Positions 6,847 to 39,558 of a DNA stretch of 64,000 bases are shown piece by piece. The position numbers and the translations under genes are program-made. A model generated the notes under the pieces. The model did not search any database, had not been told where the DNA came from, and saw nothing but the letters and a program-made list of their open reading frames with translations. This stretch comes from an uncultured virus (IMG/VR IMGVR_UViG_3300005683_000076) (taxonomy: Duplodnaviria > Heunggongvirae > Uroviricota > Caudoviricetes). Numbering within the stretch: position 1 is the stretch's first letter; every line of letters starts with the position of its first letter. The DNA lies in the IMG/VR virus record IMGVR_UViG_3300005683_000076; one strand, given 5' to 3'.

Positions 6847-6952
6847 GTTTTATTTGGCCTTTAATTTACTGTGCTGTCCCGCATAAGGACCTAAAAGAAT
6901 GAACTGCACGAAGCACTGACTGTGCTGAAAGGTGTGAAAAGTCTATATTAAC

Positions 6953-6982
6953 AGAGTAGCATATCCGTCTAGACGTTGTCAA
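6953..6982 (-). promoter_or_regulatory. sigma70 promoter for scaffold/capsid genes
   Basis: TTGACA-acgtctagacggatatgc(18)-TACTCT with TGn extended -10. Confidence 0.75.
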
Positions 6983-9270
6983 GACTTATTTTCAGATTTT
7001 TTGGGCTCTTCTGGTGGGGCCATTGCGTTCGACATCATAGCCATACCAGCCTGTGCCGGCATCTGCGATAGCATCGAGATCGACTGGGCCTTGGTCATCT
7101 CGCTGAAGAATGCAGCTTTATGCTTGCTAATCATGGCGTCACACACCGCAACTATCACTCGCGGCTGCTCGATACCGGAAGCCATGAATTCCCGGCACTT
7201 GCGTGCCCAGAAATCCGCCTGCTGCTCATGATTCTCCGCCTGTGCGTTGATCTGCAGCTGTGGCAGTGAAAGTACCTGCATGACCACGGGGTTGGGTATG
7301 GGTGCCCCCATGGCATCTACTGCCCGCTGTCCTGTCTTGGGGTCCACCACTGCCGCTTCCATTTGCTGGTACAGTGCCTCAGCCTGTGGGTCAGACAGCT
7401 GCTCCTTTACGAAGTTCAGCCGCTTCTCAGCTAGTTTGCAATTAGATTCGTAGTTGTTTATATCAATGCCGTCGTAGCCTGACTGCTGTGCAAGCTTTGT
7501 CTGCAACTCCGGAGTCATCGGAATAAACCCGGCCGCAATGTCATTACGCAGTTTGGCCTGCTTGTCAGCTCTGGATTCAGGCATCTCTGAGCCTTCGACT
7601 AGGTCAATGACAATGGCATCACGGAGGTTGGCCTGGAAGAACGCCATTACTTCGTCATCCATCCACTCCTCGTCATACCTCGCACCAAACTGCATCAAGG
7701 CCTCAGGAGAGTAGTACTTCTGGATAAGATCAAGCTGATCCCACAGCCAGCCAACTTTCATCTGCCCCTCACTGACTTTTGCCGGGATCATCAAGCCGGA
7801 AGCCCTTTGGGCTACAAGCTGCTGTCCGGTTGCCGTCTGGATGTTGGCATCCCCTTCTCCAAGCGTGACGTCTGGAATCCCCATCACACGCTGCATGGTG
7901 TCTACCTGAGTACCGAGAAACTGCAGAGACGCAGCAGAAAGTCCTGATACTTCTATCGGCATCAGGAAGTTCTTCATAGGCTGGCCGCCGGTAGAAAAGT
8001 CTGGCCGGAGGGGGATATTAGTGTTTGCTCCCTCGAGGTTGGCACCGTCGATCGCTTCAGGCAAGTACACGACCGAGCCCTTCATGCTCCTAGCCTCACC
8101 TTCCATGGCCATGTTGTCGAGCTGGTTGATCTTCTTCTGTATAGGCAGTCCGGCACGTGCACCAAGTCCGTAGAAACTGGTAGGATCTATTAGCCACACG
8201 CAAGACTTGATCCTCTTGTTCTTGTCTTCGGAATCTATGAACGCTATCTCATTGTTGACCACGCCCATTACCAGGCCGTCAGGACAGAGATCGGTGAGCT
8301 TCTGCCCTTCCTGTATAACGAACTTACCTATCTGTACGGTAGTTGGGCTTACGTAGTCTTCATACTCCGTCCGGTCCAGCCAGGTCTGTTTGACCTCGTA
8401 CTGTGTCTTCTCGAGAGATGTTCGCGGCATGGCCTCGCCAGACTGGTACTTTTTAAGTGCTACCTTTAGTCTAGTGTTGTACGACCATTCCGGTTTTCCT
8501 TTCAGTTTCAAATGCGGGTAGAGCTTCTGCAGCTCACCTTTCTGAGCAAAGTACCTCCACTGTGCCCACGAACTTTTTGTTATATCAGCAGCTTCACCAT
8601 GCCGATCGTCGACCGAAACATCTATTGCGTCTGATATGATCAGCTCGGTCTTTCCCGCGTCTACGGAGTTATATCCATCAACTACGTAATCGTTTATCTG
8701 GACAGGCTCCTGCACGTAGGACACTGGAGATCCGCATGCTGGGCAGTCCTGTGTTCCGGACAATCCTTCCCCGGAAGCAGAGCACTCTGGGCACACCCAC
8801 ACCCCTCCCTGCTCATACGAGACCGGTGAGAAGTTGGGGACATTCAGCTTCGGGCCGCCGACTTTATTAAATCTTGAGATCGCAAAAGCATTGAGCTTGA
8901 GCATTGCTGCATGGAATATGGCCTGCTCTTTGCCTTCCCACTGCGACTTGTTTAGTACCTCATATATAGACCTGGCGATCTTCTCTATTGACCGGTTCTG
9001 AAAATTGTTAGCTTTAGCTGATACATCTAGAGACACGGTAGCTTGCATGTATCCGGCCTCTGCTCCGTGAACAAGTGCCTGGAATACATTAGTACCGTGC
9101 AGTGCTGAGAACTTCGGAGAGTCTGCCCACACTCCGTTACTCCAGAAGCCGAATAGATCGCTGGGTGTAGCACCACGATACCGACGGCACATCTGGATGA
9201 TCGCCTGTGCCCTGACCTTGGCTTCAGTGGTCTCAGTCTCCTCTTTGATAAGTCGATCTACGTTAAGTAG
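6979..9270 (-). CDS. Portal protein (true start lies in or near the N gap at 9271-9338)
   Basis: About 760 aa between terminase and scaffold; P22-like portal motifs (QKKINQLDN, QTATGQQL); contains a CxxC...CxxC insert. Confidence 0.75.
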   Translation of the reverse strand, partial: LLNVDRLIKEETETTEAKVRAQAIIQMCRRYRGATPSDLFGFWSNGVWADSPKFSALHGTNVFQALVHGAEAGYMQATVSLDVSAKANNFQNRSIEKIARSIYEVLNKSQWEGKEQAIFHAAMLKLNAFAISRFNKVGGPKLNVPNFSPVSYEQGGVWVCPECSASGEGLSGTQDCPACGSPVSYVQEPVQINDYVVDGYNSVDAGKTELIISDAIDVSVDDRHGEAADITKSSWAQWRYFAQKGELQKLYPHLKLKGKPEWSYNTRLKVALKKYQSGEAMPRTSLEKTQYEVKQTWLDRTEYEDYVSPTTVQIGKFVIQEGQKLTDLCPDGLVMGVVNNEIAFIDSEDKNKRIKSCVWLIDPTSFYGLGARAGLPIQKKINQLDNMAMEGEARSMKGSVVYLPEAIDGANLEGANTNIPLRPDFSTGGQPMKNFLMPIEVSGLSAASLQFLGTQVDTMQRVMGIPDVTLGEGDANIQTATGQQLVAQRASGLMIPAKVSEGQMKVGWLWDQLDLIQKYYSPEALMQFGARYDEEWMDDEVMAFFQANLRDAIVIDLVEGSEMPESRADKQAKLRNDIAAGFIPMTPELQTKLAQQSGYDGIDINNYESNCKLAEKRLNFVKEQLSDPQAEALYQQMEAAVVDPKTGQRAVDAMGAPIPNPVVMQVLSLPQLQINAQAENHEQQADFWARKCREFMASGIEQPRVIVAVCDAMISKHKAAFFSEMTKAQSISMLSQMPAQAGMAMMSNAMAPPEEPKKSENKS

Positions 9271-9592: not shown

Positions 9593-9731
9593 CTTGTATA
9601 AAACCTATCCGGCGTTTACGTTTTGGCTTGTCATTCTTTGGGATCTCCGTGAACCCTGTATAGGAGCCGACCCCGAGAATAAAATCCAGTGAGTCGTCTT
9701 CTTCGTGCGATGTCGGTTTTTTCTTAGCCAA
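9495..9731 (-). CDS. Small basic hypothetical protein
   Basis: 78 aa, overlaps the terL stop. Confidence 0.4.
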   Translation of the reverse strand: MAKKKPTSHEEDDSLDFILGVGSYTGFTEIPKNDKPKRKRRIGFIQDVQQVTDKAATTRKRKTAKGNTKKGSGSGRTA

Positions 9732-12495
9732 TGTTTACCCAGTCAGCCAGGAGTTGGTCTGTCTCTTGTAGTTTCTTGCGGGCCTCCTCTGCCAGGATCA
9801 CTCTCTGACTCCAGATATGTGCTTTGTAGCTGGGATCTTCTATAGAATCTAAGTAGTTCTTAGGTTGTATCTCTTCCACCTTGTCTAGTACCTTTTCATT
9901 GAGCGACTTCTCCGTCGCATACGGCCAGTAGTCAAAAGCAGCAGCCCTCATGGTGTCCACCGCGTCATTGAACAATGCGTATGGAACTAGTCGGGTAGTA
10001 GGTTCCCCTGACTTCAGTTGGGCCCAGTGGTAGGCCAGTATCTCCTCTCTCCACCTGGCCAGGCCTTTATCGCTCTCGGCCCGGACAAGTTCCCGATCAT
10101 CCACGACCAGGAATAGTTGAGGACATCCCTTGAGCTCCGGCTTGAACGGATTAGGCTTATCGGTGTTGGTGAGAGCGAAAGCATTCTTGAGCTGTTCAAT
10201 ACCTCGAGTACGGCCGGTCTTCCACGGGACAAACGGCAGGCCCTGTTTGTTGAACTCGATTCGCTCAGAACTGGCTTCGTGAGACATCTGCCAGGTTACA
10301 CACTGGCTCTTCTCGTGTCTCATGAAGTCGGAAATTATTGCAGCCATCTCTCTGGCACTTGTCTGGGTAGTCGTGTGGCCGCGGTACAGAAAAACCTTGC
10401 CAGCCAGCGGAACCCCGTCTACGGTTGGGGAGTTATTTGCAGCTGTAGCAAACCAGGAGGTTACGTTGGGGTGACCTTCAGTGGTACCAGCGTCAAGATA
10501 AACGGCCGTCTTCCAGTGCGTTGGTATCTTCCGCTGTCCAAATATCCTCTCGAACTGGCTCCAAGAGATGACGGTGTGGGCTTCGCTGTATGTGTAGAGA
10601 ATGTCTCCGCGGGTCTGGATCTGCCAGTCTCCTGACAAGTACTGTTGCCTGGTGATCTCATCCAGCTGCATCAGGGACTGCAGGTATGCTTCCCGATCGA
10701 GCGACGGGTTGTCATCTAGCATTGACGGAACGAATGCCGTGATGTGTGGAGGATCTCCCGGGACCACGGACTCGTGCTCTTTGTACCAGATGTCTCTCTC
10801 ACGTGCGTTGGCCGGAGAGAAGTCGTTCGGTATGAATCTTTCAAATACCCACTTACCGCCTATGTTGCCTGGGTTGGTATTACCTGAGATCCATACAGAT
10901 CCTTCCTGCCGTAAAACAAAGTTGTGATTATCTTCAACTTCAATGCAGTAGATCTTCCCACTATACTCAACTTCTCGTATCTTACGCTTATCTACTACGG
11001 TGGTATTTGAGTTAACAGTCAGGTACACAGTGTACCTGTCGTTGTGTCGATCATTTTCTAAAACCTTATGACTGACTTTAGTTTTATACCCCAGACGCAG
11101 CCCAAGTTCAGAAATGTCATCCGCAAGCTGTTTACTACAAGTCACATATTGGATAGATCCGTTGTTTCTAACGTGTCCATCTCCAAACACTGCCCACTCA
11201 AAGACTTTACGTAACTGCCCCTCAGTAGCACTTTCTAGTACGTCACGTGGAATGTGCTTTTCATGTGACTTACCTAAAACCTTGAAGTAGTTCCACGCTG
11301 CAAGATCTGTAGTCTCAGAGTCACCATTTGCACAATGACAGTGCTTGACCGGTACTCTGTCCAAAAGTTCTAACACTGCTGGGCGTTTCTCTAGGTTACA
11401 CTGTGTGACCACAGTTCGGTGTCTTTTTGGATTTACACTAGTACAGCCTTCTGCAATAAATAATCCTAAATAAGAGAAGAATACCTCATCGTCCCACCCA
11501 AGAGGATTTACATACCCGTTTCCAAATTCCGCCGACTCTGGGCACCGTACGACTGCAGCTGTTTTTGCATCATACTGATTCCAGGGCAAAGTCACGTACT
11601 TGGCCCTTTTTTGATTCCTGGAGTTTCGTGTACGGATCGTGACCCGGTGGTCCTCTGTCATGGACATTGTTAGTCCCTTACCGTCAAACCTTAAAAATTT
11701 CTTATCATTATCATACTCATGAAACTTCAGTACTTTGCGAAGCTGCAAACGGCCCTCAGTATTTAAGCTGTATACCTCTGCCCCTTCTTTAACTTCTTTA
11801 ATATCCACCCAGCCGTGTTTAGTAAGGACCTCTCCGCGGTCCACACACGCTCCCATTACCCGGAGAGGAACTGGAATGTCGGCACGCTTGCGTACGCGGG
11901 AGAATAGAAACTTGTAGACCGACTCGTGGTGCTGTGTAAGCTCGTCCCATCCGATGAATTGATACTCACCACCTAGGTACTTGAACTTGTCTGATTCTGT
12001 ATCCAGGAAGCCAAACCGGAGCGTAGCTCCCGACGGGAAAGTCCAGATCTTCTGCTGTTCATTCCATCTAGCCGAGGTGTTCATCAGCCACTCTTTGCTG
12101 AGCGACATCAGACCGCCCTCTTGTGCTAGGTCCGGGAAACTCTTACGGAGAAGCAGTGCTGAGTAGCCAGGAACGTGAACATACTTGAGAGCTGCAGCAA
12201 GGAGCGTCCAGGTCTTTCCTCCGCCCACGGATCCACCAAACAGTACCTCGATGATCTTCTGGTCGCCTAGATACGGATCGTGTTCTGCGTCAAGGAACAG
12301 TTTCTGCTTGGGGTGAGGCGTCCCTTTTACCCACGTCTCGTCACCTACTGCCCCTTTAGCTATCTGGTCAGTAAGCCACTGCCGGCTAAGTACGAACAGG
12401 TCCTCGTCCGATACTGGCTGAGACTTTCGCGGCTTAGTGGAATTGAACTTTGCTGTAGTCCCCTTCGCCCGGGAAGGGTGTGGAGTTGAGGCCAT
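9724..12495 (-). CDS. terL: Terminase large subunit, intein-containing
   Basis: Walker A GGSVGGGKT, Walker B FIGWDE, motif III GA|TNPG split by an intein, C-terminal nuclease NDAVDTMR. Confidence 0.92.
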   Translation of the reverse strand: MASTPHPSRAKGTTAKFNSTKPRKSQPVSDEDLFVLSRQWLTDQIAKGAVGDETWVKGTPHPKQKLFLDAEHDPYLGDQKIIEVLFGGSVGGGKTWTLLAAALKYVHVPGYSALLLRKSFPDLAQEGGLMSLSKEWLMNTSARWNEQQKIWTFPSGATLRFGFLDTESDKFKYLGGEYQFIGWDELTQHHESVYKFLFSRVRKRADIPVPLRVMGACVDRGEVLTKHGWVDIKEVKEGAEVYSLNTEGRLQLRKVLKFHEYDNDKKFLRFDGKGLTMSMTEDHRVTIRTRNSRNQKRAKYVTLPWNQYDAKTAAVVRCPESAEFGNGYVNPLGWDDEVFFSYLGLFIAEGCTSVNPKRHRTVVTQCNLEKRPAVLELLDRVPVKHCHCANGDSETTDLAAWNYFKVLGKSHEKHIPRDVLESATEGQLRKVFEWAVFGDGHVRNNGSIQYVTCSKQLADDISELGLRLGYKTKVSHKVLENDRHNDRYTVYLTVNSNTTVVDKRKIREVEYSGKIYCIEVEDNHNFVLRQEGSVWISGNTNPGNIGGKWVFERFIPNDFSPANARERDIWYKEHESVVPGDPPHITAFVPSMLDDNPSLDREAYLQSLMQLDEITRQQYLSGDWQIQTRGDILYTYSEAHTVISWSQFERIFGQRKIPTHWKTAVYLDAGTTEGHPNVTSWFATAANNSPTVDGVPLAGKVFLYRGHTTTQTSAREMAAIISDFMRHEKSQCVTWQMSHEASSERIEFNKQGLPFVPWKTGRTRGIEQLKNAFALTNTDKPNPFKPELKGCPQLFLVVDDRELVRAESDKGLARWREEILAYHWAQLKSGEPTTRLVPYALFNDAVDTMRAAAFDYWPYATEKSLNEKVLDKVEEIQPKNYLDSIEDPSYKAHIWSQRVILAEEARKKLQETDQLLADWVNIG
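10879..11847 (-). mobile_element. Intein with LAGLIDADG-type endonuclease in TerL (323 aa)
   Basis: Starts CVDRGEVLT; block B TEDHR; LGLFIAEG and AVFGDG motifs; ends YCIEV...WISGN followed by Thr. Confidence 0.9.
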
Positions 12496-16620: not shown

Positions 16621-16697
16621 TGGTAGCAGGAGTCGGAGTTGAACCGACCGATTTCCGGATTATGAGCCCGACGAGACACGCTTTCTCCATTCCTGCG
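16621..16697 (-). tRNA. tRNA-Met(CAT), initiator (fMet) type
   Basis: CGCAGGA.../TCCTGCT-A-CCA with a C1:U72 mismatch; anticodon arm TCGGG-CTCATAA-TCCGG; T-loop GTTCAACTC; encoded CCA. Confidence 0.9.
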
Positions 16698-19540: not shown

Positions 19541-20503
19541 TTACTCAGTCGAAGATCCGCCGGCCCGTCGGGGCCTGACGACAAATAGGTACCACGCAGC
19601 GATCGCGGTAAGCAGAAGGACAACCAGGAAGATCTCCCAGTTGGAAGTAAGAAATGTAATGACTAGCGGAGTAGAAGTAGCTATGAACCGCCCTGCCCTG
19701 GACAAGAACGAGGCCCGGGCAACACCTTCCTGGATATTACCGGCCTTGTTAAGCCAGGTAGTGGCAGCATCGGCCACAGCCGAAGCCGTATCACCAATAC
19801 TGCCGTCCGGTTCCTTGTCGGTGGAAACTGAAGGAGGTGCCTGAACTGGAGCGGCGGAGTCCGTAGCACCTCCTGAGACCGGCTCAGGCTTAGCTCCCGG
19901 ACCAAAGTCCGCAGCTGAGTCAGCGACCGGTTGGGGTACTTCCTTCGATTTACGAAGAATGTCTTCAAAGCTCTGGGCGTAAGATCCTATCTGTCCGGCC
20001 TTGTCCGTGCCGTTGATGATCTGTCTGGCCCCTTTGTAATCTTTGCGGGTGTCGTTTATGAAATCGGAAAGCTTCTTGCCACTGAACCAGCCCTTGTGCA
20101 TCCCTACGGTCAAGATCTTGTAGGCATACCCTGGAGCTAGGGCAAGGTTGGGCATGTCGACCAGGTTGGCACCTAAGTATGCCCCGGCCTTTTCGTAATT
20201 CTTTTTCCAGGTAAGTTGGACGTAACCCCGGCCGTAGTACGGATAATACCGGAGCCCCTTCTGGAAGGTCTTGACCTTTCGAAGATCGCCAAGGTAATAG
20301 CCCTCCTCGACCGGCTGATATGACCAGGCTGTCTCATGAGCTGTGGTAGCCAGGGCGTAGGCTATATGCCTGATGTCTCTCCAGGTACTGTCATTCTCGA
20401 TCTGGTCCAGCAGGAACTCGAGGCCGGCCTTAGACCTCCGGCTAAGAGCCCTACCGAATGCCTGATCGTACAGATCAAAGAATTTCTTCCTGTTAAAAGT
20501 CAC
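19541..20503 (-). CDS. Endolysin, glycoside hydrolase family 19, with C-terminal TM anchor
   Basis: LATTAHET, YYGRGYVQLTW..NY and ARQIING motifs; Pro/Ala linker; C-terminal IFLVVLLLTAIAAWYLFVV. Confidence 0.88.
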   Translation of the reverse strand: MTFNRKKFFDLYDQAFGRALSRRSKAGLEFLLDQIENDSTWRDIRHIAYALATTAHETAWSYQPVEEGYYLGDLRKVKTFQKGLRYYPYYGRGYVQLTWKKNYEKAGAYLGANLVDMPNLALAPGYAYKILTVGMHKGWFSGKKLSDFINDTRKDYKGARQIINGTDKAGQIGSYAQSFEDILRKSKEVPQPVADSAADFGPGAKPEPVSGGATDSAAPVQAPPSVSTDKEPDGSIGDTASAVADAATTWLNKAGNIQEGVARASFLSRAGRFIATSTPLVITFLTSNWEIFLVVLLLTAIAAWYLFVVRPRRAGGSSTE

Positions 20504-20510
20504 TACAATT

Positions 20511-20540
20511 AGAGTACCATCATCGTCTATACGTTGTCAA
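20511..20540 (-). promoter_or_regulatory. sigma70 promoter for the endolysin operon (probably leaderless)
   Basis: TTGACA-acgtatagacgatgatgg(18)-TACTCT; GTG start 7 nt downstream. Confidence 0.75.
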
Positions 20541-20582
20541 GACCTTTTAGGTAAAAAAGTAAAAATATTTTTACGAAAAGTA

Positions 20583-20612
20583 TTGACATTGGCTAGACCG
20601 ACATGCTATTCT
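20583..20612 (+). promoter_or_regulatory. Divergent sigma70 promoter driving a non-coding transcript
   Basis: TTGACA-ttggctagaccgacatgc(18)-TATTCT; AT palindrome GTAAAAATATTTTTAC (20559-20574) between the two promoters. Confidence 0.75.
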
Positions 20613-20966
20613 AATTGTGAAGATTCGGACAAGAAACTCTTCCGGTGTTGTTGGGAGCCCTGTAGATGGGTGTTAGAGCATGACATCGATAACAAACCGC
20701 CCGATCGTCTCCGAAGCGATTTATCCGGTTCCTCTAACTGGTTCTACAGTACGGCATAAGTTGTAAGCCAGGTACTACGAGATTGGGATTCAGCCATTAC
20801 GTCTGTCTCCGGTGGGGGAGAACTCCACTTACTTATAAGAACTACTTACTGTAAAATACTGGTATCTAAATCTCATTGGTTCGGAGCTACGCTCCTCACC
20901 GGATAAGAAATTTAGTTTATACTTTCTAGCTTACACAGTGTTAGTTAGTACTTTGGTTGGATCTAA

Positions 20967-21065
20967 CCGGTAAGTATAGTACCTACAAGTACAGAACCCC
21001 GGTAAGTATAGTACCTACAAGTACAGAACCCCGGTAAGTATAGTACCTACAAGTACAGAACCCCG
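20967..21065. repeat. Three perfect 32-bp tandem repeats
   Basis: Unit CCGGTAAGTATAGTACCTACAAGTACAGAACC at 20967, 20999 and 21031. Confidence 0.95.
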
Positions 21066-21165: not shown

Positions 21166-21287
21166 ATGCCCAAAACCTGCTGTGGACGCAACAATTTAGA
21201 CGCAAAAATGGGTACCGAACCCGCTTGGACCGATACCCTATCTAAAATGACGTTAATTTTACCCCACCTGTAGGCCGTTTACCAAGA

Positions 21288-21869
21288 TCACGGCCCGAGC
21301 AGCTTCAATTCCCCGCTCTCGATCCGCGAGATTATCTCCGATTTCCGTATTTCCGGGACCAGAGGCTCTAAATTGGCCCTCTTGAAGGCGTCGATCGCCG
21401 CGATCTGGTCCATTTTGGTCATCATGAACCTGATAAACTCGAGTGCGTGGGTCTCTGATCCAATAGATTGCGAGATTTGGGTAGGATCCCCACGCTCTAA
21501 CCTGTGGACCGTGTCGGCAAAGCGTCCCATTTGTGCAATACCGGCCAGTGCTTTCGGGTCCGAGGCCTGATTTATGAGGATTTCTCCCTTTTCCAGGGCC
21601 GCGAGCGTGACGTCGAGTGCTTTGCTGGCCAGCTTTTCCTTCTTTTTCTCGTATAGATCTAGGACCGTGTCGTCCACGTTATGCAGCTGCGTGTGATCTA
21701 CAGTCCAGGTAGATACTTTCAGCTTTTTTGCTATGTCTTTGTTCGTTATGTCGTGGTCTCGGCGTAGATCTTTTTGTACCAGGATCTCTGCACGGAGATT
21801 GGCGGAGATGTTCCGGCCGCGTTTCTTCGGCTTATTTGACTTTTTGGATATACCGGTTGGGTTAGCCAT
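21288..21869 (-). CDS. HTH protein, probable terminase small subunit
   Basis: Basic N-terminus, HTH (NKDIAKKLKVSTWTV), helical core, RLERGDPTQI; first gene of the late arm. Confidence 0.55.
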   Translation of the reverse strand: MANPTGISKKSNKPKKRGRNISANLRAEILVQKDLRRDHDITNKDIAKKLKVSTWTVDHTQLHNVDDTVLDLYEKKKEKLASKALDVTLAALEKGEILINQASDPKALAGIAQMGRFADTVHRLERGDPTQISQSIGSETHALEFIRFMMTKMDQIAAIDAFKRANLEPLVPEIRKSEIISRIESGELKLLGP

Positions 21870-21877
21870 ATACTAGT

Positions 21878-21907
21878 AGTGTAGCACAGTCGTCTAGCTG
21901 TTGTCAA
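21878..21907 (-). promoter_or_regulatory. sigma70 promoter for the terS-like gene (near-leaderless)
   Basis: TTGACA-acagctagacgactgtgc(18)-TACACT; ATG 8 nt downstream. Confidence 0.75.
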
Positions 21908-22100
21908 TACTACTCTTACAGGTTCCCGGATCCCGGCCGGGACTCCTTAGGTACTTATTTTGGCGGGTGGAGGGGGGCGGTTCCGGACTGGTGAGTAACT
22001 TTAATGTGTCTCTATATATACGTGTCTAAACCCAAAACGTCCCTAGGTACTTAATCCCTGACATACCCCGTACCCACTAACATTCCTGATCTCTCCCGTG

Positions 22101-22205
22101 CGTGCGGTTCCTTGCGTTGCTCGCAGGTCTCACACACACGCGTGCGGTTCCTTGCGTTGCTCACGGCGGGTGCGTGCGTGTCACGCGCGGTTCCTTGTGT
22201 TGTTC
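22101..22205. repeat. Three spaced 22-bp direct repeats
   Basis: CGTGCGGTTCCTTGCGTTGCTC at 22101 and 22141 (identical); degenerate copy at 22184. Confidence 0.9.
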
Positions 22206-22214
22206 TCGACCTGC

Positions 22215-22368
22215 TGTACGATTTTAGTACGTCCGGTTTTCATACACTCTGCACTATTGTCATACACTTTCTGTCCGATTTCAATACAGGTTTTTGGTCT
22301 GTCCGTTTGGCACTGTTTGGCTAACTGTTGCAAGTGCAGGACTTAGCAGGTATGGCACGGCAGGTGCA
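22215..22368 (+). promoter_or_regulatory. sigma54 (-24/-12) promoter with upstream enhancer-like and IHF-like sites
   Basis: TGGCACGGCAGGTGCA (GG-N10-GC) at 22353-22368; four related 17-bp boxes at 22215-22288; IHF-like TAACTGTTGCAA at ~22322. Confidence 0.65.
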
Positions 22369-22685
22369 GTATAGACGGTGGCTAGACACAGTATGTGTTT
22401 AGCAGGCTATTTGACAGTCTAGATAGGCTCTGCCTGTGATGTGCTTGTAGTGTGTTCTACGAACCCGAAGCATATCTTTCACGGTAGAAGTGCGTCTAGA
22501 CAATTGGGCGAAAACGGATAGCACCCGCTATTGTAAAGTGCCATCGCGTGTCGTAGTGTGCCCCAAGGGCGTGATGAACGGTTTTGGAAAGCAACTAAGG
22601 CTAAGCGGCTGAGACACCATTGTGTGTCTAGTACCGAACGGGGGACGAAAGGCATCCGAAGTGTGAGCCGAAATACACACAGCGA

Positions 22686-23397
22686 GTTTTGGATTAGCTT
22701 TGTGCGATACGGGACGTTTCTAAACTATCAAAAGTGAGGTACGTACCCAATGAAAAATAAAGCTAATTTCACTCTGGACTCATTGTCCGGTTATTCGCCG
22801 ACATTTGCATCATCCGGTGTCGCAAATGAGGACGCCGACGATGTTCTGAATAGGATCATCTCGGAGCCCTGCGGTACTGATGCTGTAACATTCAGCGAGA
22901 AAAGCTCAAACACGCGAGCACTGTCATTCGCGGCCGCTGGACGTGGCATCGTGTCGGCAATCGTGAACGAAGAGAACAAACGCCGAAAGGTCGAAGCGTT
23001 CTATCAGCGATTTCCGAAAGATGCCGGACTCATCGGCTATGACGACGAAGTGGACGCCCGTTTCAAGGAGTTCAAAAATTTTGTCCGCACGAACGACGTT
23101 CACGAAACGGTCTTGATTTTGAACTGCGAGAAAGGGATTCCACTCGAAGTCCGAAACAAGGCAGCGAAACAGGTTGCTATCATCGGCAACTATACCGGAC
23201 TCTTGACTGACGACGTAGCTGAAAAGTTCGCGAAAGCGTCTTTCAACTACTTTCTTCTCAAGAATCCACTCTTTCAGGCAGCGGTCTTGGCGAAGGTTTT
23301 AGGGCCGAAAACGAAGCAAAAAGCTGACCAACATCCGACGGAAGCTGACAACTAGTTTCCATTCCTTGTCCCGTACCGTACAAACCTAATCCAAAAC
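22686..23397. repeat. 30-bp inverted repeat pair enclosing the first early gene
   Basis: 22686-22715 versus reverse complement of 23368-23397: 27 of 30 identical. Confidence 0.9.
22750..23355 (+). CDS. Hypothetical protein, first early gene
   Basis: 201 aa, SD GAGGT. Confidence 0.8.
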   Translation: MKNKANFTLDSLSGYSPTFASSGVANEDADDVLNRIISEPCGTDAVTFSEKSSNTRALSFAAAGRGIVSAIVNEENKRRKVEAFYQRFPKDAGLIGYDDEVDARFKEFKNFVRTNDVHETVLILNCEKGIPLEVRNKAAKQVAIIGNYTGLLTDDVAEKFAKASFNYFLLKNPLFQAAVLAKVLGPKTKQKADQHPTEADN

Positions 23398-23414
23398 AAG
23401 TAAGGAGAAATACT

Positions 23415-23972
23415 ATGCCAATCAAGACTTCTCTAAATCCGACGAAGTGGAAACGGGCGATGATTAACGGCAGGGATCCTATTTGTGATTCTAAACCTGT
23501 AATCTACTCTGAACCACACAAGCGGAAAATGGTAAGGCATTTTGATATGTCCATGCCTAGAGGAATGGTAGAGAATGTTGACGACAACCTAGTTGATGCG
23601 TTGACACCTGTACCTGCCCTGAATGAGACGGAATGTAGAACGGTGTGTGCGTTGTATAACCACAAGCACTTGAGACGCAATCAGTCCCCACTGATACAGG
23701 CAGATTTAGCATATCGCCTATCATTAGGGAACTTTAGACTTTGTGGAAATTGTGAAAAACCGATTAACACAAAGGTGTCGAAAATCAATAGCGGTGTAGA
23801 ACTCGACAAACTCACCCCGAAAACCGTAGAGTATGCCGATGTTCCTGCACACTATCGTGTTGTAAAAGACGAAAAGAACTCTAAAAAAGTTCGATACATC
23901 CTAATCCCCAAAACTCGCGTATTCAATCAGAAATGTATGTGTGGTTCTGGTATGCGAGACCTGCTGAAGTAA
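23415..23972 (+). CDS. Hypothetical Cys-containing protein
   Basis: 185 aa, SD AAGGAG, CxxC motif. Confidence 0.75.
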   Translation: MPIKTSLNPTKWKRAMINGRDPICDSKPVIYSEPHKRKMVRHFDMSMPRGMVENVDDNLVDALTPVPALNETECRTVCALYNHKHLRRNQSPLIQADLAYRLSLGNFRLCGNCEKPINTKVSKINSGVELDKLTPKTVEYADVPAHYRVVKDEKNSKKVRYILIPKTRVFNQKCMCGSGMRDLLK

Positions 23973-23988
23973 TTGAACCAAAACGAAA

Positions 23989-24029
23989 GAGTCCTGACCT
24001 GCCCAATACGGGCCGGTGAGGGCTTTTTT
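23989..24029 (+). terminator. Rho-independent terminator
   Basis: AGTCCTGACCTGCCC-AATAC-GGGCCGGTGAGGGCT followed by a T tract. Confidence 0.7.
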
Positions 24030-24074
24030 GTTTTTGCTCAAACTTTATTCAACTAAACGGAGGTAAAAGACAGT

Positions 24075-24224
24075 ATGACACGATTAGAAAAGAAACAATT
24101 AGATGCGGACAGGAAGTTCCGCCAACAAACTCGGGAACAGTCAATAAAATTCCGCGATCGAATAGCCGTCGTGAAAGCGGACGGACGCAAGATAGAACTC
24201 CCTCCTCGCCACCTACACGTATAA
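24075..24224 (+). CDS. Small basic protein (49 aa)
   Basis: SD GGAGGT; MTRLEKKQLDADRKFRQQTREQ...; below the ORF-track cutoff. Confidence 0.55.
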   Translation: MTRLEKKQLDADRKFRQQTREQSIKFRDRIAVVKADGRKIELPPRHLHV

Positions 24225-24377
24225 CCTACCTGAACACGAACCTGTGTTTTTGTTCAAGAGGAGAAAACGAGATGAAGTGGACTCCTGTTTTCAGGATGAT
24301 AGGTAACAGGCGTGCAAGTAACCAATCTTGCCCGATGCCGCCCTTGAGAGATTAATATACGAACTTGTAAAGTGACC

Positions 24378-24599
24378 ATGCCAAAAACCGTGTATGCAGT
24401 ACTGGTTATCGATACTGAACGTTGGGACGATGGTGATCTGTGCGTGGAGATATCACCTTCAATAACCGAAAAACCTCACATTTGGCTGGAGGAGGGGTAC
24501 CCGGAGCCAAAGTTGAACAGCATTTTACTTGTGCGTAAAACGGGAAAGCAGGTCCAAGGGTGTATGGGTGGGATTTGCTACTACGAGGTCGTGAGCTGA
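24378..24599 (+). CDS. Small paralog-family protein
   Basis: YAVLVI...NSILLVRKTGKQVQG...YYEVV. Confidence 0.65.
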   Translation: MPKTVYAVLVIDTERWDDGDLCVEISPSITEKPHIWLEEGYPEPKLNSILLVRKTGKQVQGCMGGICYYEVVS

Positions 24600-24601
24600 T
24601 C

Positions 24602-24835
24602 ATGAGACACACGATTAAGATAGGAACCCGGCGAGCTTTTCTTATTACTGAAGTGGGCCAGATTGCACACGGTCCTTCGGGCACGTGGAAAGGTTTTAGG
24701 GCCGAAAACGAAGCAAGGTGGCTTTACGCTCTAGGAGATTCTGTTCGCAAGAAGATTAAACCTGGTACGATCCACATCTTTGAATTCACAGAAAACCATC
24801 CCCACTCCCTCCCACTGTGGGTACTAATTGATTGA
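24602..24835 (+). CDS. Small paralog-family protein
   Basis: IGTRRAFLI...KPGTIHIFE...LWVLI. Confidence 0.65.
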   Translation: MRHTIKIGTRRAFLITEVGQIAHGPSGTWKGFRAENEARWLYALGDSVRKKIKPGTIHIFEFTENHPHSLPLWVLID

Positions 24836-24839
24836 TCAC

Positions 24840-24992
24840 ATGAAAACACCAAAACGAGCAATTCTAACACCTAATTGGATGCAAAGGTGGTGGGGAACCC
24901 TTGTTCCCATCTCTTTGTTGATCGCCGGCGTGACCTTTGTGTGGGGACTCTCCAAAGGAATTAAGGAGAATAGAAATGCCAAGGAAAGGTAA
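24840..24992 (+). CDS. Single-TM peptide (50 aa)
   Basis: MKTPKRAILTPNWMQRWWGTLVPISLLIAGVTFVWGLSKG... Confidence 0.55.
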   Translation: MKTPKRAILTPNWMQRWWGTLVPISLLIAGVTFVWGLSKGIKENRNAKER

Positions 24993-34215: not shown

Positions 34216-34453
34216 AGTAGGAGAAGAGAGGGCCTTTATTGTTCCCGAATACATTGAGTACAACTCTACGTTTGAGGACGTAGCGTTTAAGATCTATGGA
34301 ACACATGAATGGATCTATATTAAAAAATTTAGGTCAAAGCTTATTCCTCATCAGATTGTAGTTCTCAGACAAACCGATGAACCAGTCCCAGCTGACTCGG
34401 GCGGAGAAATTGAATATATAGACGATTGTTACTATTGGGAAATCGTGAAATGA
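34181..34453 (+). CDS. Small paralog-family protein (tandem 1)
   Basis: VGEERAFIVP...HQIVVLRQT...YYWEIVK. Confidence 0.75.
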   Translation: METSTNENFKFEVGEERAFIVPEYIEYNSTFEDVAFKIYGTHEWIYIKKFRSKLIPHQIVVLRQTDEPVPADSGGEIEYIDDCYYWEIVK

Positions 34454-34692
34454 AAATACCTACAAAACGTTCAGCACTGCTTGTCCCTGATAATATTAAC
34501 GACTGGGAGTTTAACGAAATGCTGGAAGATTATATATTTTTCTGCGACTATAACCAGTTTTTGTACATAGATGCTAAAGCAGGAGAACTATATCCTGGCT
34601 GTATAGTTGTGATCAGGCCAACCAATCGACCAGTTAGGGGGTTTATAAACAATGATGAGCCTATACCTAAGTACTGGGAGATCGAGAAATGA
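34450..34692 (+). CDS. Small paralog-family protein (tandem 2)
   Basis: KRSALLVPD...LYIDAKAGELYPGCIVVI...YWEIEK. Confidence 0.8.
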   Translation: MKIPTKRSALLVPDNINDWEFNEMLEDYIFFCDYNQFLYIDAKAGELYPGCIVVIRPTNRPVRGFINNDEPIPKYWEIEK

Positions 34693-34928
34693 AACTACCT
34701 AAAAAGCGTACAGCACTACTTGTACCTGATGATGCCAGCTGGGAGTACAACTACCGCATGAAAGACTACGAGTTTTGTTTAGAACATGAAGAAACACTGT
34801 ACATAGATGCTGAGAAAGGAGAGCTGTACCCAGGTTGTATAGTCATAATCAAACCAACTACGCGGAAAGTTAGAGGGTTTGAAAATAACGATCTACGTTT
34901 CCCTAACTATTGGGAGATCGAGAAATGA
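34689..34928 (+). CDS. Small paralog-family protein (tandem 3)
   Basis: KRTALLVPD...LYIDAEKGELYPGCIVII...YWEIEK. Confidence 0.8.
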   Translation: MKLPKKRTALLVPDDASWEYNYRMKDYEFCLEHEETLYIDAEKGELYPGCIVIIKPTTRKVRGFENNDLRFPNYWEIEK

Positions 34929-35173: not shown

Positions 35174-35813
35174 AACACTCAAAACAAATTTCTGGGACGA
35201 TCGATATATCACCTCATTACCCACAGACTATCGATACCTGTACTTATACTTAAAACTTAACAAGCACATTCAGACCTCCGGTTGTTGCCAACTTAAAGTT
35301 CTTCAGATGGCTGTCGAGACTGGCCTCAGCGTAGACGTTATACGCGACGGACTGCAGAAGCTCCAGCAAGATGGAAAGATCCGATACGAAGATGACTGGC
35401 TAGCTGTTGCTGGTGAGATGCAAAACAAGGGAGTGAAACTCCAGGCCGCCACGGACCTACAGTTGGCACAAGCTCCTGAATGGGTAGGTGAGTTCCTAGT
35501 TGGTGAAGGTGGTAAAGATTCCCGGGCCTCCCATCCGGCCATCCAGTTGATCCGTGACCTGACTGAAAGATACCCGCCGCGTTCTCAGTGGGACGTGATC
35601 ATTGAGCTGTTAGGCGATGACTTGGATGAGGAGTATTTCAGGGAGTGTCACGCTGAGTGGGCTCGACGAGCCTACAACCCCCGAGGAACAGCGTGGTACA
35701 CGGAATGGTACGTGAACAGATCTAAACCAGGCAGTAAGAAAGAATATGTCAAACAAACTAATGCGGACACGCTCCGAGAGTATTACGAAGTCTTCTCCGC
35801 GAAAGATCAGTGA
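35160..35813 (+). CDS. Phage replication initiator / replisome organizer (wHTH)
   Basis: RTLKTNFWDD...YLYLYL..N...SG......MAVETGLS...L..L, the N-terminal pattern of phage O/DnaD-like initiators. Confidence 0.7.
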   Translation: MAANRTLKTNFWDDRYITSLPTDYRYLYLYLKLNKHIQTSGCCQLKVLQMAVETGLSVDVIRDGLQKLQQDGKIRYEDDWLAVAGEMQNKGVKLQAATDLQLAQAPEWVGEFLVGEGGKDSRASHPAIQLIRDLTERYPPRSQWDVIIELLGDDLDEEYFRECHAEWARRAYNPRGTAWYTEWYVNRSKPGSKKEYVKQTNADTLREYYEVFSAKDQ

Positions 35814-36294
35814 CCAGGATACTCAGCTGGTTGAGGCCCTCGTAAGAACGAGACTTGTTCAAGGGTGGAACCTGCAGAAAGCAGAAGACGCCAAGCTCAC
35901 CGCATCGATATGGAAACAAGAGCTAGACCGGCATAAGATCAACCCCAAGATCTACTCTATTCTAGTTGATATGGCAGTAGATCGGCGGACGTACGAGATC
36001 GTAAATAGTAAGCCACCAACTCCGCTCACCGTAGAACTATTGATAGCCTGCTATCACAACTACAGAGACCTTAAGCTGTCGGAGTACAGCAAGTTGCGTA
36101 CCTCGTATGAGCACTATCGTGACCTCTTACACCAGTACAAGACCAACCAGATCTCTTTGGAGGATGCTGTTGATCAGGCCAGGTTTCACAAAGAAACAGA
36201 TAAGGAAAACTTTATGTCCACGTGTGCACAGATCATCAAGGATCTGGAAGAAAAGATGGAAACTTTTCTAGATGATTATGGAATCAACGTATAG
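35746..36294 (+). CDS. Putative helicase loader/inhibitor
   Basis: Directly follows the initiator; helical; function inferred from synteny. Confidence 0.4.
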   Translation: MSNKLMRTRSESITKSSPRKISDQDTQLVEALVRTRLVQGWNLQKAEDAKLTASIWKQELDRHKINPKIYSILVDMAVDRRTYEIVNSKPPTPLTVELLIACYHNYRDLKLSEYSKLRTSYEHYRDLLHQYKTNQISLEDAVDQARFHKETDKENFMSTCAQIIKDLEEKMETFLDDYGINV

Positions 36295-36529: not shown

Positions 36530-36797
36530 ACCAGGAGTACGAGCTGCAGCTGTAATAACAAGGATAACTGAAAGCTACACTTATTGGATATTTTCAAGCC
36601 CGTCATTTGACGGGTGGGTACAAAATACAGCCCCCTCTATTACGAAGGTTGGGTACGCTAGGTATAAAGAATTTCCAAACGTGAACTTCTATCCCGGTCA
36701 AGTAGTTGTTTTTGAGTGGCGTCTGTGGCCGATACAGCCCTTACGTTATTTTTGGCAACCAGTAATAACAAATAAAGAACTTGAAACTAACAGATAA
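36516..36797 (+). CDS. Small paralog-family protein
   Basis: KPGVRAAAVI...FYPGQVVVFE...FWQPV. Confidence 0.7.
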   Translation: MKIAKPGVRAAAVITRITESYTYWIFSSPSFDGWVQNTAPSITKVGYARYKEFPNVNFYPGQVVVFEWRLWPIQPLRYFWQPVITNKELETNR

Positions 36798-39558
36798 GAG
36801 CAACAAACCACGGTCTATCCGGCCAAACTTCAACAACATACCAGCAGAACTGAAGGAACTAAAGCAGTTCCTACTGTGGAAGTACGTCTGGCGAGATGGC
36901 GATTCCTGTTGGGCCAAGATCCCGTTAATGCCAAACAAGAAAGCTGCATCCGTCAAGGACCCAGCTACCTGGTCCTCCTTTGAAGAGTGCAGGTCAGTCC
37001 TAGAAGAAGATCCACACTTTGACGGTTTGGGGTATGTATTTACTAGCGATGATCCTTACGTTGGAGTAGATGTAGACAACTGTATAAAGGATTCTAAGCT
37101 GAGTGACACGGTTCAAAAGCTGAAGGAACGTCTCGGCAGCTACGCAGAGTACAGTCCGAGTAGATCCGGTATACATATCATCTGTAAAGGCTCCATTCCC
37201 AAGGCCGGTCGCGGCAAGTGGAAGGACGAGGACCTCGAGATCTACTCGACCGGAAGATACTTCACGCTTACAGGTCAGCCTGTGGGTGAGATACTCCCCG
37301 TCGTGGACAAGACTATGCTGCTTCGTCGTACGATCGACGAGATACAAAAAGAAAAGAGTGCAACAGCAGTAGAAGTCACGACAGATCGCCGGCTGAAGTC
37401 GGCACTAGAGAAGCCGTACATTAAAAAACTCTTTGAGGGTGATATATCTAAATACCCTAGCCAGTCCGAGGCAGACATGGCGTTGTGTGCCAAGCTGGTC
37501 CCGTATGTTGGTGGCAGCCGGGAGCTGCTCGATCAAATGTTCCGCAAGTCTAAACTGTTCCGGGATAAGTGGGACGAGCAGAGAGGAGCAGAGACATACG
37601 GCCAAAGTATTTTATCTAAAGTATTAAGCTCCGATTCCCCAGCCCTAACCGTCAGCCTGCCATCAGGGGAATCTACCAGAGAGAGTCGACGAGCGGGAAG
37701 ATTTACTGTCGATTCTCTCTGGGACCGAGTCATGAACTTTAGACAGAACGGTGACGCACGGGGATACAGTCCTGGCTGGAAAGAACTAGAAAGGTATTAT
37801 CGTCCCACGTTGGGATCACTCAGCGTATTACTTGGAGAACCGTCGGCCGGTAAGTCCACCTTCATGGATGCATTGTCAGTCAATATGTGCAAGAACCACA
37901 ACTGGAGGATAACTATGGCCTCGTTTGAGTCCTTGCCAATTGAGAGACACATCAACAACCTGTGTCAGATCTACCTGCAAAAACCTACATATACCTTTCT
38001 ATCGGGGTGTGCTTCAGATAAAGAAATGGATGAAGCCCGAGAAGAGCTGAATGAGTGGTTCAATTTCATTTCCCCAACCGACGACGACCTGTCACTGGAG
38101 ACAATGCTTAAGTATGTAGAGGATGACATTGAGGAGTTCGGCGTCAATGGATTTGTACTAGATCCGTGGACAGAGGTAGATATTCGGACCGGTAAGAGTA
38201 GCGAGGTAGATTCTATCAAGAATGAATTGAAACGGCTGCAGCAATTTACCAGAGTACGTGACATTCATACTTGGTTACTGGTCCACCCAACAAAATCCAA
38301 CAAAGACAACTACAAGCAAGAGACGCGAGGCATGAGGCCCACACTGTATTCAGCCTCAGGTGCCGCACATTTTAGAAACAAAGCTCTGGCACTAGACACT
38401 AAGATACCCACCCCAGACGGCTGGACCACAATGAAGGACGTCAAAGTGGGAAGTGTCTTATTCGACAACTACGGCAACCCATGCACGGTGACCAATGTCA
38501 CTGAGGTATTTGAAAACGCTCAATGCTATCGCATGAAGTTTAAGAATGGGGCTGAAGTAATTGCCGATGCCGGCCACCAGTGGATAACTAATGATTTACC
38601 TGCTAGGCACAGTAACAGTAAATCACTGAAGTACGGGTACAAGGCCAAACCTTACTCTGCAGTTAGAACTACAGAGGAAATTGCTGCGACTGTACTAACG
38701 AAAGATGGTAATGCGAATCACAGAGTACCTGTAACTAAGCCTCTCAATCTTCCGGAGAAAGATCTCTTAATCCCGCCGTACACCTTGGGTGCGTGGTTAG
38801 GGGACGGTAGAAAGTATGACGGGCAGTTTACATCTATTGACATAGAAGTCATCGATCGTATTAGACAGGACGGATACACCGTCAACCAGCACACCTCGCA
38901 GAAGTCCTGGGGTATTAAATCATTGAAGACCCAGCTAAGAGAACTCGGCCTAATACGTAATAAACATATTCCTGTTCAGTATTTACGAGGGTCATACGAG
39001 CAGAGACTGGACTTAGTTAAAGGCTTAATGGACACCGACGGATGTGCCGAAAAAAATAGTGGGTGGTGCATTTTCGTTAACACTAATAAATCCATAGCCG
39101 TTGGCTTACTGGAGTTGCTTGGAACTTTGGGCATTAAGGCCAGTATCAAAGAAGGCAGGTCTTCCATCGGCAACAAAGACTACGGAGTTAAGTACGAGGT
39201 GAAATTTACAACCGAGACTGAGGTTTTCAATCTTCAGTACAAGCTGGAGAACCAGAGAAAAGCGGTAAATAAAACCACACAGTGGAGCAGTGTTGTATCA
39301 GTTGAACCTGTGGAGTCCGTACCCGTGAAGTGTATAGAAGTAGACTCACCGGAACACATGTTTCTTGTGACGGATCACTTTATCCCCACACACAACTGTG
39401 ACTTCGGTCTGGTCATACACAGGTGGGATGACGACACGGTGAGTCTGTACATAGACAAAGTTAGAAACTCTGAATCTTCCGGTGCTAGAGGCTCAGTAGA
39501 TTTTAAGTTTGATACGCAGAGGAGAGAGTATGTCGAAGAAGAAGTGGACCGCTGGTGA
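36781..39558 (+). CDS. Primase-polymerase (NrS-1-like AEP) fused to a T7 gp4/Twinkle-type SF4 helicase, intein-containing
   Basis: VGVDVD, EYSPSRSGIHI, EIYSTGRYFT, SQSEADMALC; helicase GEPSAGKST, FVLDPW, LLVHPTK, GAAHFRNK|CDFG. Confidence 0.88.
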   Translation: MKLTDKSNKPRSIRPNFNNIPAELKELKQFLLWKYVWRDGDSCWAKIPLMPNKKAASVKDPATWSSFEECRSVLEEDPHFDGLGYVFTSDDPYVGVDVDNCIKDSKLSDTVQKLKERLGSYAEYSPSRSGIHIICKGSIPKAGRGKWKDEDLEIYSTGRYFTLTGQPVGEILPVVDKTMLLRRTIDEIQKEKSATAVEVTTDRRLKSALEKPYIKKLFEGDISKYPSQSEADMALCAKLVPYVGGSRELLDQMFRKSKLFRDKWDEQRGAETYGQSILSKVLSSDSPALTVSLPSGESTRESRRAGRFTVDSLWDRVMNFRQNGDARGYSPGWKELERYYRPTLGSLSVLLGEPSAGKSTFMDALSVNMCKNHNWRITMASFESLPIERHINNLCQIYLQKPTYTFLSGCASDKEMDEAREELNEWFNFISPTDDDLSLETMLKYVEDDIEEFGVNGFVLDPWTEVDIRTGKSSEVDSIKNELKRLQQFTRVRDIHTWLLVHPTKSNKDNYKQETRGMRPTLYSASGAAHFRNKALALDTKIPTPDGWTTMKDVKVGSVLFDNYGNPCTVTNVTEVFENAQCYRMKFKNGAEVIADAGHQWITNDLPARHSNSKSLKYGYKAKPYSAVRTTEEIAATVLTKDGNANHRVPVTKPLNLPEKDLLIPPYTLGAWLGDGRKYDGQFTSIDIEVIDRIRQDGYTVNQHTSQKSWGIKSLKTQLRELGLIRNKHIPVQYLRGSYEQRLDLVKGLMDTDGCAEKNSGWCIFVNTNKSIAVGLLELLGTLGIKASIKEGRSSIGNKDYGVKYEVKFTTETEVFNLQYKLENQRKAVNKTTQWSSVVSVEPVESVPVKCIEVDSPEHMFLVTDHFIPTHNCDFGLVIHRWDDDTVSLYIDKVRNSESSGARGSVDFKFDTQRREYVEEEVDRW
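38383..39396 (+). mobile_element. Class 3 (Ala1, WCT) intein with LAGLIDADG endonuclease (338 aa)
   Basis: ALALDTKIPTPDGW; HQW (W), VKCIEV (C), PTHN/C (T); LGAWLGDG and GLMDTDG. Confidence 0.9.

Follow-up and report, generated by a model that had tools for sequence, protein, structure and literature searches.

A 30-base inverted repeat enclosing the first gene of a phage replication-side block may act as an RNA switch gated by completion of the message

Why should a single phage gene lie exactly between the two arms of a long inverted repeat? We examined this question in an uncultured virus, using as our window the first 64,000 bases of the 67,276-base record IMGVR_UViG_3300005683_000076, which is rated complete. 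The genome encodes a large terminase, a primase, a family A DNA polymerase, exonucleases and a glycoside-hydrolase-19 endolysin. Its DNA polymerase is less than 30% identical to those of the 15 listed cultured or deposited phages. Among public runs, the top holders of the phage are sludge and wastewater DNA metagenomes; runs with small phage shares were left out as evidence for expression level or habitat. Genes are read from the minus strand up to 21869; plus-strand genes begin at 22750 and continue to about 46100. The enclosed gene, gene 1, is the first long plus-strand open reading frame (ORF) of a block with primase, exonuclease and DNA polymerase. Gene 1 appears to open this replication-side block, and its position suggests that it is an early gene. 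The features of the locus are these:

22545..22685, plus strand: structured 5' leader, comprising a long hairpin (22545-22607), a second hairpin (22608-22632) and a third (22657-22684)
22686..22715, plus strand: 5' arm, predicted partner of the 3' arm once the message is full length; in the unfinished message, 20 of the 30 bases are predicted to pair with the gene 1 start region
22704..22710, plus strand: predicted toehold for the 3' arm, seven 5'-arm bases unpaired in the blocking hairpin; putative role
22716..22726, plus strand: inner strand of the blocking hairpin, pairing with the Shine-Dalgarno site and spacer
22733..22774, plus strand: region where gene 1 initiates, with Shine-Dalgarno site (22733-22740), spacer, ATG (22750) and codons 2-9; competes with the 3' arm for the 5' arm
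22750..23355, plus strand: gene 1, 201 amino acids here and 192 in close strains, predicted all-helical and with no known family or fold
23293..23319, plus strand: strain-specific in-frame insertion of 27 bases, identical to 24690-24716, 1.4 kb downstream; nine extra residues
23340..23360, plus strand: 8-pair hairpin spanning the gene 1 stop codon
23368..23397, plus strand: 3' arm, predicted to act as the trigger by displacing the 5' arm from the start region
23415..23972, plus strand: gene 2, 185 amino acids, with invariant Cys and His residues; Shine-Dalgarno site 23402-23407
23967..24045, plus strand: hairpin of 32 pairs following gene 2; no other local hairpin in the window is as stable

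The repeat described in the first-pass annotation was confirmed. The two arms are complementary at 27 of 30 positions and form the best inverted self-match in the 67,276-base genome (blastn E 0.002). Across 15 dinucleotide shuffles of the window, the best inverted 30-mer match within 3 kb reached only 21-23 positions in every case. The arm helix consists of blocks of 12, 8 and 8 pairs split by two single mismatches, and no other ungapped stem of 22 pairs passed the threshold within 3 kb on either strand. A 12-mer from the arm occurs elsewhere in the genome at chance level, with no further copies of the arms, and among 16 early genes examined gene 1 alone has a continuous enclosing helix. As had been claimed, the arms bracket the ORF together with its ribosome-binding site, and the 3' arm ends just before the next Shine-Dalgarno site: read directly from the letters, 34 bases separate the 5' arm from the ATG, 12 the stop codon from the 3' arm, 4 the 3' arm from the next Shine-Dalgarno site and 17 the 3' arm from the gene 2 start codon.

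Inverted arms that exactly bracket one gene could be DNA recombination sites or the ends of a mobile cassette, with gene 1 inverting or moving between them, and the region downstream does gain and lose segments between strains (joints at 24242-24470). Strain contigs from seven of 21 listed public runs were compared, six of the runs giving cover of the region. Single contigs of X3 and X4 cross both arms in the orientation of the window, and in the six runs with cover we found no joint at either arm among contigs, from which rare forms drop out. The complete-rated record (G000) contains no match to tyrosine or serine recombinases (PF00589, PF00239), although a host enzyme could act in their place. 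The flanks of the arms differ, so that there is no target-site duplication, and neither X3 nor X4 has an empty site. In a relative at 73-82% identity, the homologues of gene 1, gene 2 and the small terminase candidate are each on a contig of 3328 in length, which suggests that their order has been kept. The proposal of inversion or mobility made in the first-pass annotation thus finds no support, and we consider it very improbable.

RNA anti-CRISPRs act as CRISPR repeat mimics, and the arms were also searched as candidates of this kind. Matches were at chance level: each of the 63 exact hits of 18 bases in genome_contigs stood alone, outside any array, and the best whole-arm match was 24 of 30, in a search that would miss a diverged mimic.

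Several observations argue instead for pairing as RNA. When the segment 22561-23420 was folded, 28 of the 30 arm positions were paired with probabilities of 0.90-1.0. A G-U wobble noted earlier does exist on the plus strand, but it carries no strand evidence since the minus strand gains one too, and the duplex energies of the two strands are equal (-45.0 and -45.4 kcal/mol). The 5' leader is more informative about strand. X3 and X16 share a divergent leader and were counted once, as one lineage. Their changes touch seven pairs of the hairpin at 22545-22607, six of which are kept when read by hand against the pair table: double changes keep 22554/22597 and 22564/22586, single changes keep four further pairs, and 22591 is broken. 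X3 also turns a mismatch at 22598 into a pair, and in the hairpin at 22608-22632 two single changes (22609 and 22632) keep pairing. Each of the six single leader changes makes or removes a plus-strand G-U; in minus-strand RNA the same positions would be A-C mismatches. Because the changes keep pairs as G-U on the plus strand only, the leader behaves as a structured plus-strand RNA. It may constitute a separate RNA element; a search of Rfam families, hammerhead included, gave no match to the leader.

The arms themselves are conserved between close strains. X4, about 4% diverged, has one contig across both arms at depth 20, with at least 39 changes in 22560-23500 (44 differing letters counted). 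Among the changes listed, none lies in either arm and none in 22672-22799, and three lie within 4 bases of the 3' arm. The significance of this is weak for the two arms alone (P 0.065) and likewise for an empty run of 128 bases anywhere (P 0.098); a value of P 0.003 holds only for the change-free region picked afterwards. The X3 contig also spans both arms and has no change in the 5' arm and one at 22748, among the 40 of its 192 differences that were listed. With its pairing probabilities, and with a leader that covaries as plus-strand RNA, the long-range RNA stem suggested in the first-pass annotation is supported, and the arm helix very likely forms as an RNA stem. The related suggestion that the ORF is looped out from a larger RNA structure stands on the 5' side, where the leader is structured, but not on the 3' side, where the arm lies so close to the next start codon.

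What the earlier account lacked is a second partner of the 5' arm, the start region of gene 1 itself, a match that can be read from the sequence. In folds, the two form a blocking hairpin (22684-22774) of 30 pairs and -28.7 kcal/mol, in which 22684-87 pairs with 22771-74, 22691-22703 with 22757-69 (codons 3-7), 22711-17 with 22741-48, and 22719-26 with 22733-39 in the Shine-Dalgarno site. The mismatches between the arms fit this second pairing: C22698, unpaired against the 3' arm, finds a partner in G22762 within the blocking hairpin, to which it contributes about 4 kcal/mol, and the other mismatch falls in the unpaired stretch of the hairpin.

We folded transcripts of increasing length. Those ending before the 3' arm formed the blocking hairpin, whole or mostly, each time. 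Opening 22733-22764 cost 13.1-18.1 kcal/mol in all 24 folds ending at 22770-23375, from three 5' starts, and 6.8 kcal/mol in all nine folds ending at or past 23397; with the 5' arm removed the cost was 5.9-9.0 kcal/mol. It also dropped on completion of the 3' arm at each of 20, 30 and 37 C and with all four other footprints, and the drop persisted with the insertion or with base 22748 held unpaired. The change at 22748 in X3 and X16 makes the block lose about 3 kcal/mol. The models therefore predict a start that is shut before the 3' arm is made and open afterwards, with a residual 8-pair helix kept over the Shine-Dalgarno site in the open state.

The strength of the block depends on the particular 5' arm. 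When the arm was replaced, in controls designed only after the hairpin had been seen, a block at least as strong as the real one (21.0 in a 100-base context) arose with none of 1000 mononucleotide-shuffled arms, two of 1000 dinucleotide-shuffled arms and none of 1000 natural 30-mers. Other comparisons set bounds on how special the arrangement is. Among mechanically called starts, some of them internal, that of gene 1 ranks second of 30 on the plus strand and fifth of 54 overall for closure, and four other such starts are equally closed. As a target of the 5' arm, the start region (-13 to -17 kcal/mol) is weaker than the best chance windows genome-wide (-25 to -30 kcal/mol). When codons 2-10 were recoded synonymously, 48 of 500 variants blocked as strongly as the real sequence, so codon choice is not clearly tuned. 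The block is just 8.8 kcal/mol before codon 4 emerges, so a closely coupled ribosome could load first. A findpath estimate of the refolding barrier gave an upper bound of 23 kcal/mol, which we do not trust since it ignores pseudoknotted toehold steps. A second switch, over the Shine-Dalgarno site of gene 2, was predicted at -5.9 kcal/mol and rejected, as X4 changes at 23366 and 23400 break the fold.

From these observations we propose that the arms form an RNA switch that would keep gene 1 untranslated until its whole message has been transcribed, perhaps with later trimming by RNase III. In the nascent message, the 5' arm is predicted to fold back over the spacer and first codons, in a hairpin that buries the Shine-Dalgarno site. 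The 3' arm, made about 650 bases later, would land on the seven unpaired bases of the 5' arm at 22704-22710. The 30-pair helix would then strip the 5' arm away and open the start region; the open end state is predicted by folding, and the pathway and speed of the transition are our surmise. Ribosomes translating gene 1 would leave the arm helix intact, since no part of it is within the reading frame. Cutting of the helix by host RNase III may follow and leave a one-gene message with clamped ends. The purpose might be a delay, or a check that restricts the protein to complete messages. This completion-gated switch is the best-supported mechanism, resting on folding models and on close-strain conservation, and we give it an even chance of being correct. 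We would go further only tentatively, to the proposal that this is a natural one-molecule toehold switch, in which a phage 3' untranslated region (UTR) activates translation of its own message by strand displacement. Such a switch would act on completed messages only and have a built-in delay, and perhaps serve phage-wide in the timing of early proteins or in withholding them from transcripts shortened by the host.

Leader-trailer stems flank 16S and 23S rRNA, and the arm helix could likewise be a plain processing stem, through which RNase III frees a stable one-gene message or destroys an unstable one, the start hairpin being a by-product. At 30 pairs it exceeds the idealised RNase III substrate of 22 pairs given in the accessible text of one report, which also describes cutting of T7 early RNA at five sites (PMC3867540). 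According to the available part of another report, RNase III acts on long-range targets in B. subtilis mRNAs whose cuts lie as far as 505 bases apart (10.1101/2023.03.12.532304). A processing stem leaves unexplained, however, why the 5' arm should fit the start region better than 998-1000 of 1000 controls do. Moreover, RNA-library contigs X16 and X18 cross the 5' arm and X16 crosses the 3' arm, molecules that may be precursor or DNA, and the phage's own genome contains no match to RNase III. We regard processing by itself as a possible but less probable account. RNase III cutting of the arm helix is nonetheless plausible, and the two mechanisms can coexist: in simulated cuts the inner half of the arm helix kept the start open at 6.8 kcal/mol, so that processing is compatible with the open state. 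As between the two, we favor the switch.

The helix might also remain uncut and serve as a clamp, which shields the message or holds stop and start close so that ribosomes reload on gene 1 in a closed loop. The geometry would allow this, as the stop codon lies 12 bases and the start codon 34 bases from the helix and both ribosome footprints fall outside it, and pairing between 5' and 3' ends guards hbs mRNA from RNase Y, as far as the accessible text of that report goes (PMC5737220). Base-paired closed-loop translation is cited for eukaryotic RNA viruses only in the part of the source available to us (PMC3868564), and we think a clamp improbable.

A further proposal of the first-pass annotation was circularisation, in which the message would be cut and its ends ligated. 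Circular RNAs usually require that the ends be paired first, and the arms do pair the ends of the message. Even so, the RNA-library contigs X16, X18 and X19 contained no backward joint, at low depth and with X19 stopping short of the arms. The stem has single mismatches only and no bulge-helix-bulge, and no RtcB match was found in the phage genome. Circularisation is thus unsupported, and we consider it the least probable of these readings.

How does the proposed switch compare with known systems? The closest are the type I toxin mRNAs aapA3 and hok, in which, according to the accessible text, a nascent hairpin hides the Shine-Dalgarno site and a long-distance 5'-3' interaction replaces that hairpin at full length (PMC6733600). 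The gene 1 message is alike in both steps, here as computed. In aapA3 and hok, however, the long-distance pairing keeps the site hidden and 3' trimming activates the message, whereas here 5'-3' pairing is predicted to free the site: the full-length message is inert in those systems, and for gene 1 the opening cost at full length falls to 6.8 kcal/mol. The gene 1 protein, at 192-201 amino acids, is also no small toxin. On the folding models, the gene 1 switch would resemble the aapA/hok fold-back except that its last step has the opposite sign, and it is outside that family. In the 5' UTR of the MS2 maturation gene, the order in which two mutually exclusive folds form during synthesis sets translation, in the account available to us (PMC4615214). 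The two cases share mutually exclusive folds in phage RNA, ordered by synthesis, but MS2 is an RNA phage, its switch is local to the 5' UTR and its polarity is opposite, briefly open and then shut.

Direct pairing of one bacterial mRNA's 5' UTR with its 3' UTR is described for icaR, hbs and RNAIII (PMC3868564, PMC5737220, PMC7821165), and the icaR duplex is cut by RNase III (PMC3868564). In the accessible portions of these papers such pairings repress or delay translation or shield the message from nuclease, and none activates; the pairing lengths given are 14 bases for hbs and 7 for RNAIII, against 30 here. In length and span the arm helix resembles the B. subtilis RNase III targets, which the available text describes as duplexes of 10-36 pairs closed over hundreds of bases (10.1101/2023.03.12.532304). 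It also recalls the processing of early transcripts in T7 (PMC3867540), where the R1.1 site is a local stem of 49 bases in the part of the source at hand (PMC8708148), and where cutting is established and not, as here, surmised. In living B. subtilis, pairing across hundreds of bases acts on ribosome-binding sites, as repression in the accessible account (PMC12697547). Among titles of the open-access literature, outside which most subscription journals lie, we found none on a stem of this kind around a phage gene, or on a message activated through strand displacement by its own 3' UTR.

Homologues of the gene 1 protein, which the switch would control, fall into six clusters at 51-93% identity plus one distant fragment, with N-termini that differ, and the protein matched only 2 of 1.84 billion representatives at E <1e-10. 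At the DNA level, gene 1 had no match in viral_contigs or genome_contigs, and metagenome_contigs gave only L001, which is identical to the phage over the 861 bases compared. Searches of viral_contigs gave no match for the small terminase candidate, its alignment, the ATPase or the arm pattern. Three weak matches from an alignment search with gene 2 lay inside a resolvase-like gene and were judged unrelated, and cultured phages gave only chance matches of 30-32 bases. Gene 1 had no Pfam match, and its best PHROG match was at E 0.074; five of seven members weakly matched a restriction-enzyme model (E 0.0012 over 62 residues). The predicted structure, modelled from seven sequences, is all-helical with a mean pLDDT of 74.7. 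A structure search, which the first-pass annotation had called for, returned no Foldseek match at E 0.001 and a best VIA-align Z of 4.4; the missing match does not show that the fold is new.

The length of 201 amino acids given earlier for gene 1 holds in the present strain, but 11 of the 12 members of its 90% cluster have 192. The difference is the 27-base insertion, which is present in the window strain and in X2, from the same study, and absent from X3, X4, X16 and those 11 of 12 cluster members. The donor-like copy at 24690-24716 sits in another gene and another frame, and X4 keeps it while lacking the insertion. The insertion junctions share at most 2 bases. The insertion is likely a templated copy made during replication or repair, and it leaves the arms untouched; the genome contains no match to reverse transcriptase.

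Downstream, the invariant Cys and His residues of gene 2 suggest possible metal binding. The hairpin at 23967-24045 is likely a terminator and possibly an RNase III site as well. We considered an RNase III box shared between this hairpin and the arm stem and rejected it: CCAAAAC occurs in both, in non-equivalent orientation. The motif or its complement is found 11 times in the window, seven of them within 21170-24855. Separately, 24242-24470 is a hot spot of strain differences, where contigs of X3, X4 and X16 have from 44 to more than 400 extra bases, near short hairpins that precede ribosome-binding sites.

Other features of the genome bear on its organization. A search of the plus strand from 21875 to 22750 gave no consensus promoter. 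Elsewhere, four related sites resemble promoters, having TTGACA, a spacing of 18 bases and a core like (C/A)TAGAC; they lie at 6933-6990, 20491-20548, 20576-20618 and 21858-21915, one pair of them back to back, and are likely phage-specific late promoters. Tandem repeats at 20967-21065 (three copies, 32-base period) and 22100-22205 (three copies of a 23-base unit) flank the small terminase candidate. This region may be near a genome end or an origin, as L001 starts within the first repeat. The large terminase (9724-12495, 923 amino acids) matches its families in two stretches, and the second half of the primase (36781-39558) matches families labelled as terminase; both proteins may carry inteins. 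An ORF of 3210 amino acids on the minus strand (46580-56212) has no PHROG match and is possibly a virion ejection protein or virion RNA polymerase. A tRNA with a CAT anticodon lies at 16621-16697 on the minus strand. The product of 35746-36294 weakly matches a PHROG family labelled leukocidin yet filed under DNA metabolism; it adjoins a DnaD-like gene and is probably a replication protein, the label being misleading. Two pairs of duplicated segments with 70-73% identity, at 34433-34928 and at genome positions 63673-64263, correspond to paralogous small genes.

If the proposed mechanism is true, an activating pairing between 5' and 3' UTRs would reverse the usual logic of such pairings in bacteria, which in the accessible literature repress, delay or protect. 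The phage would uncouple translation from transcription for a chosen gene, and the switch would be a natural template for expression parts that work at full length only. Stems that enclose genes would also gain a cheap and sharp test: does the 5' arm also hide its own start site?
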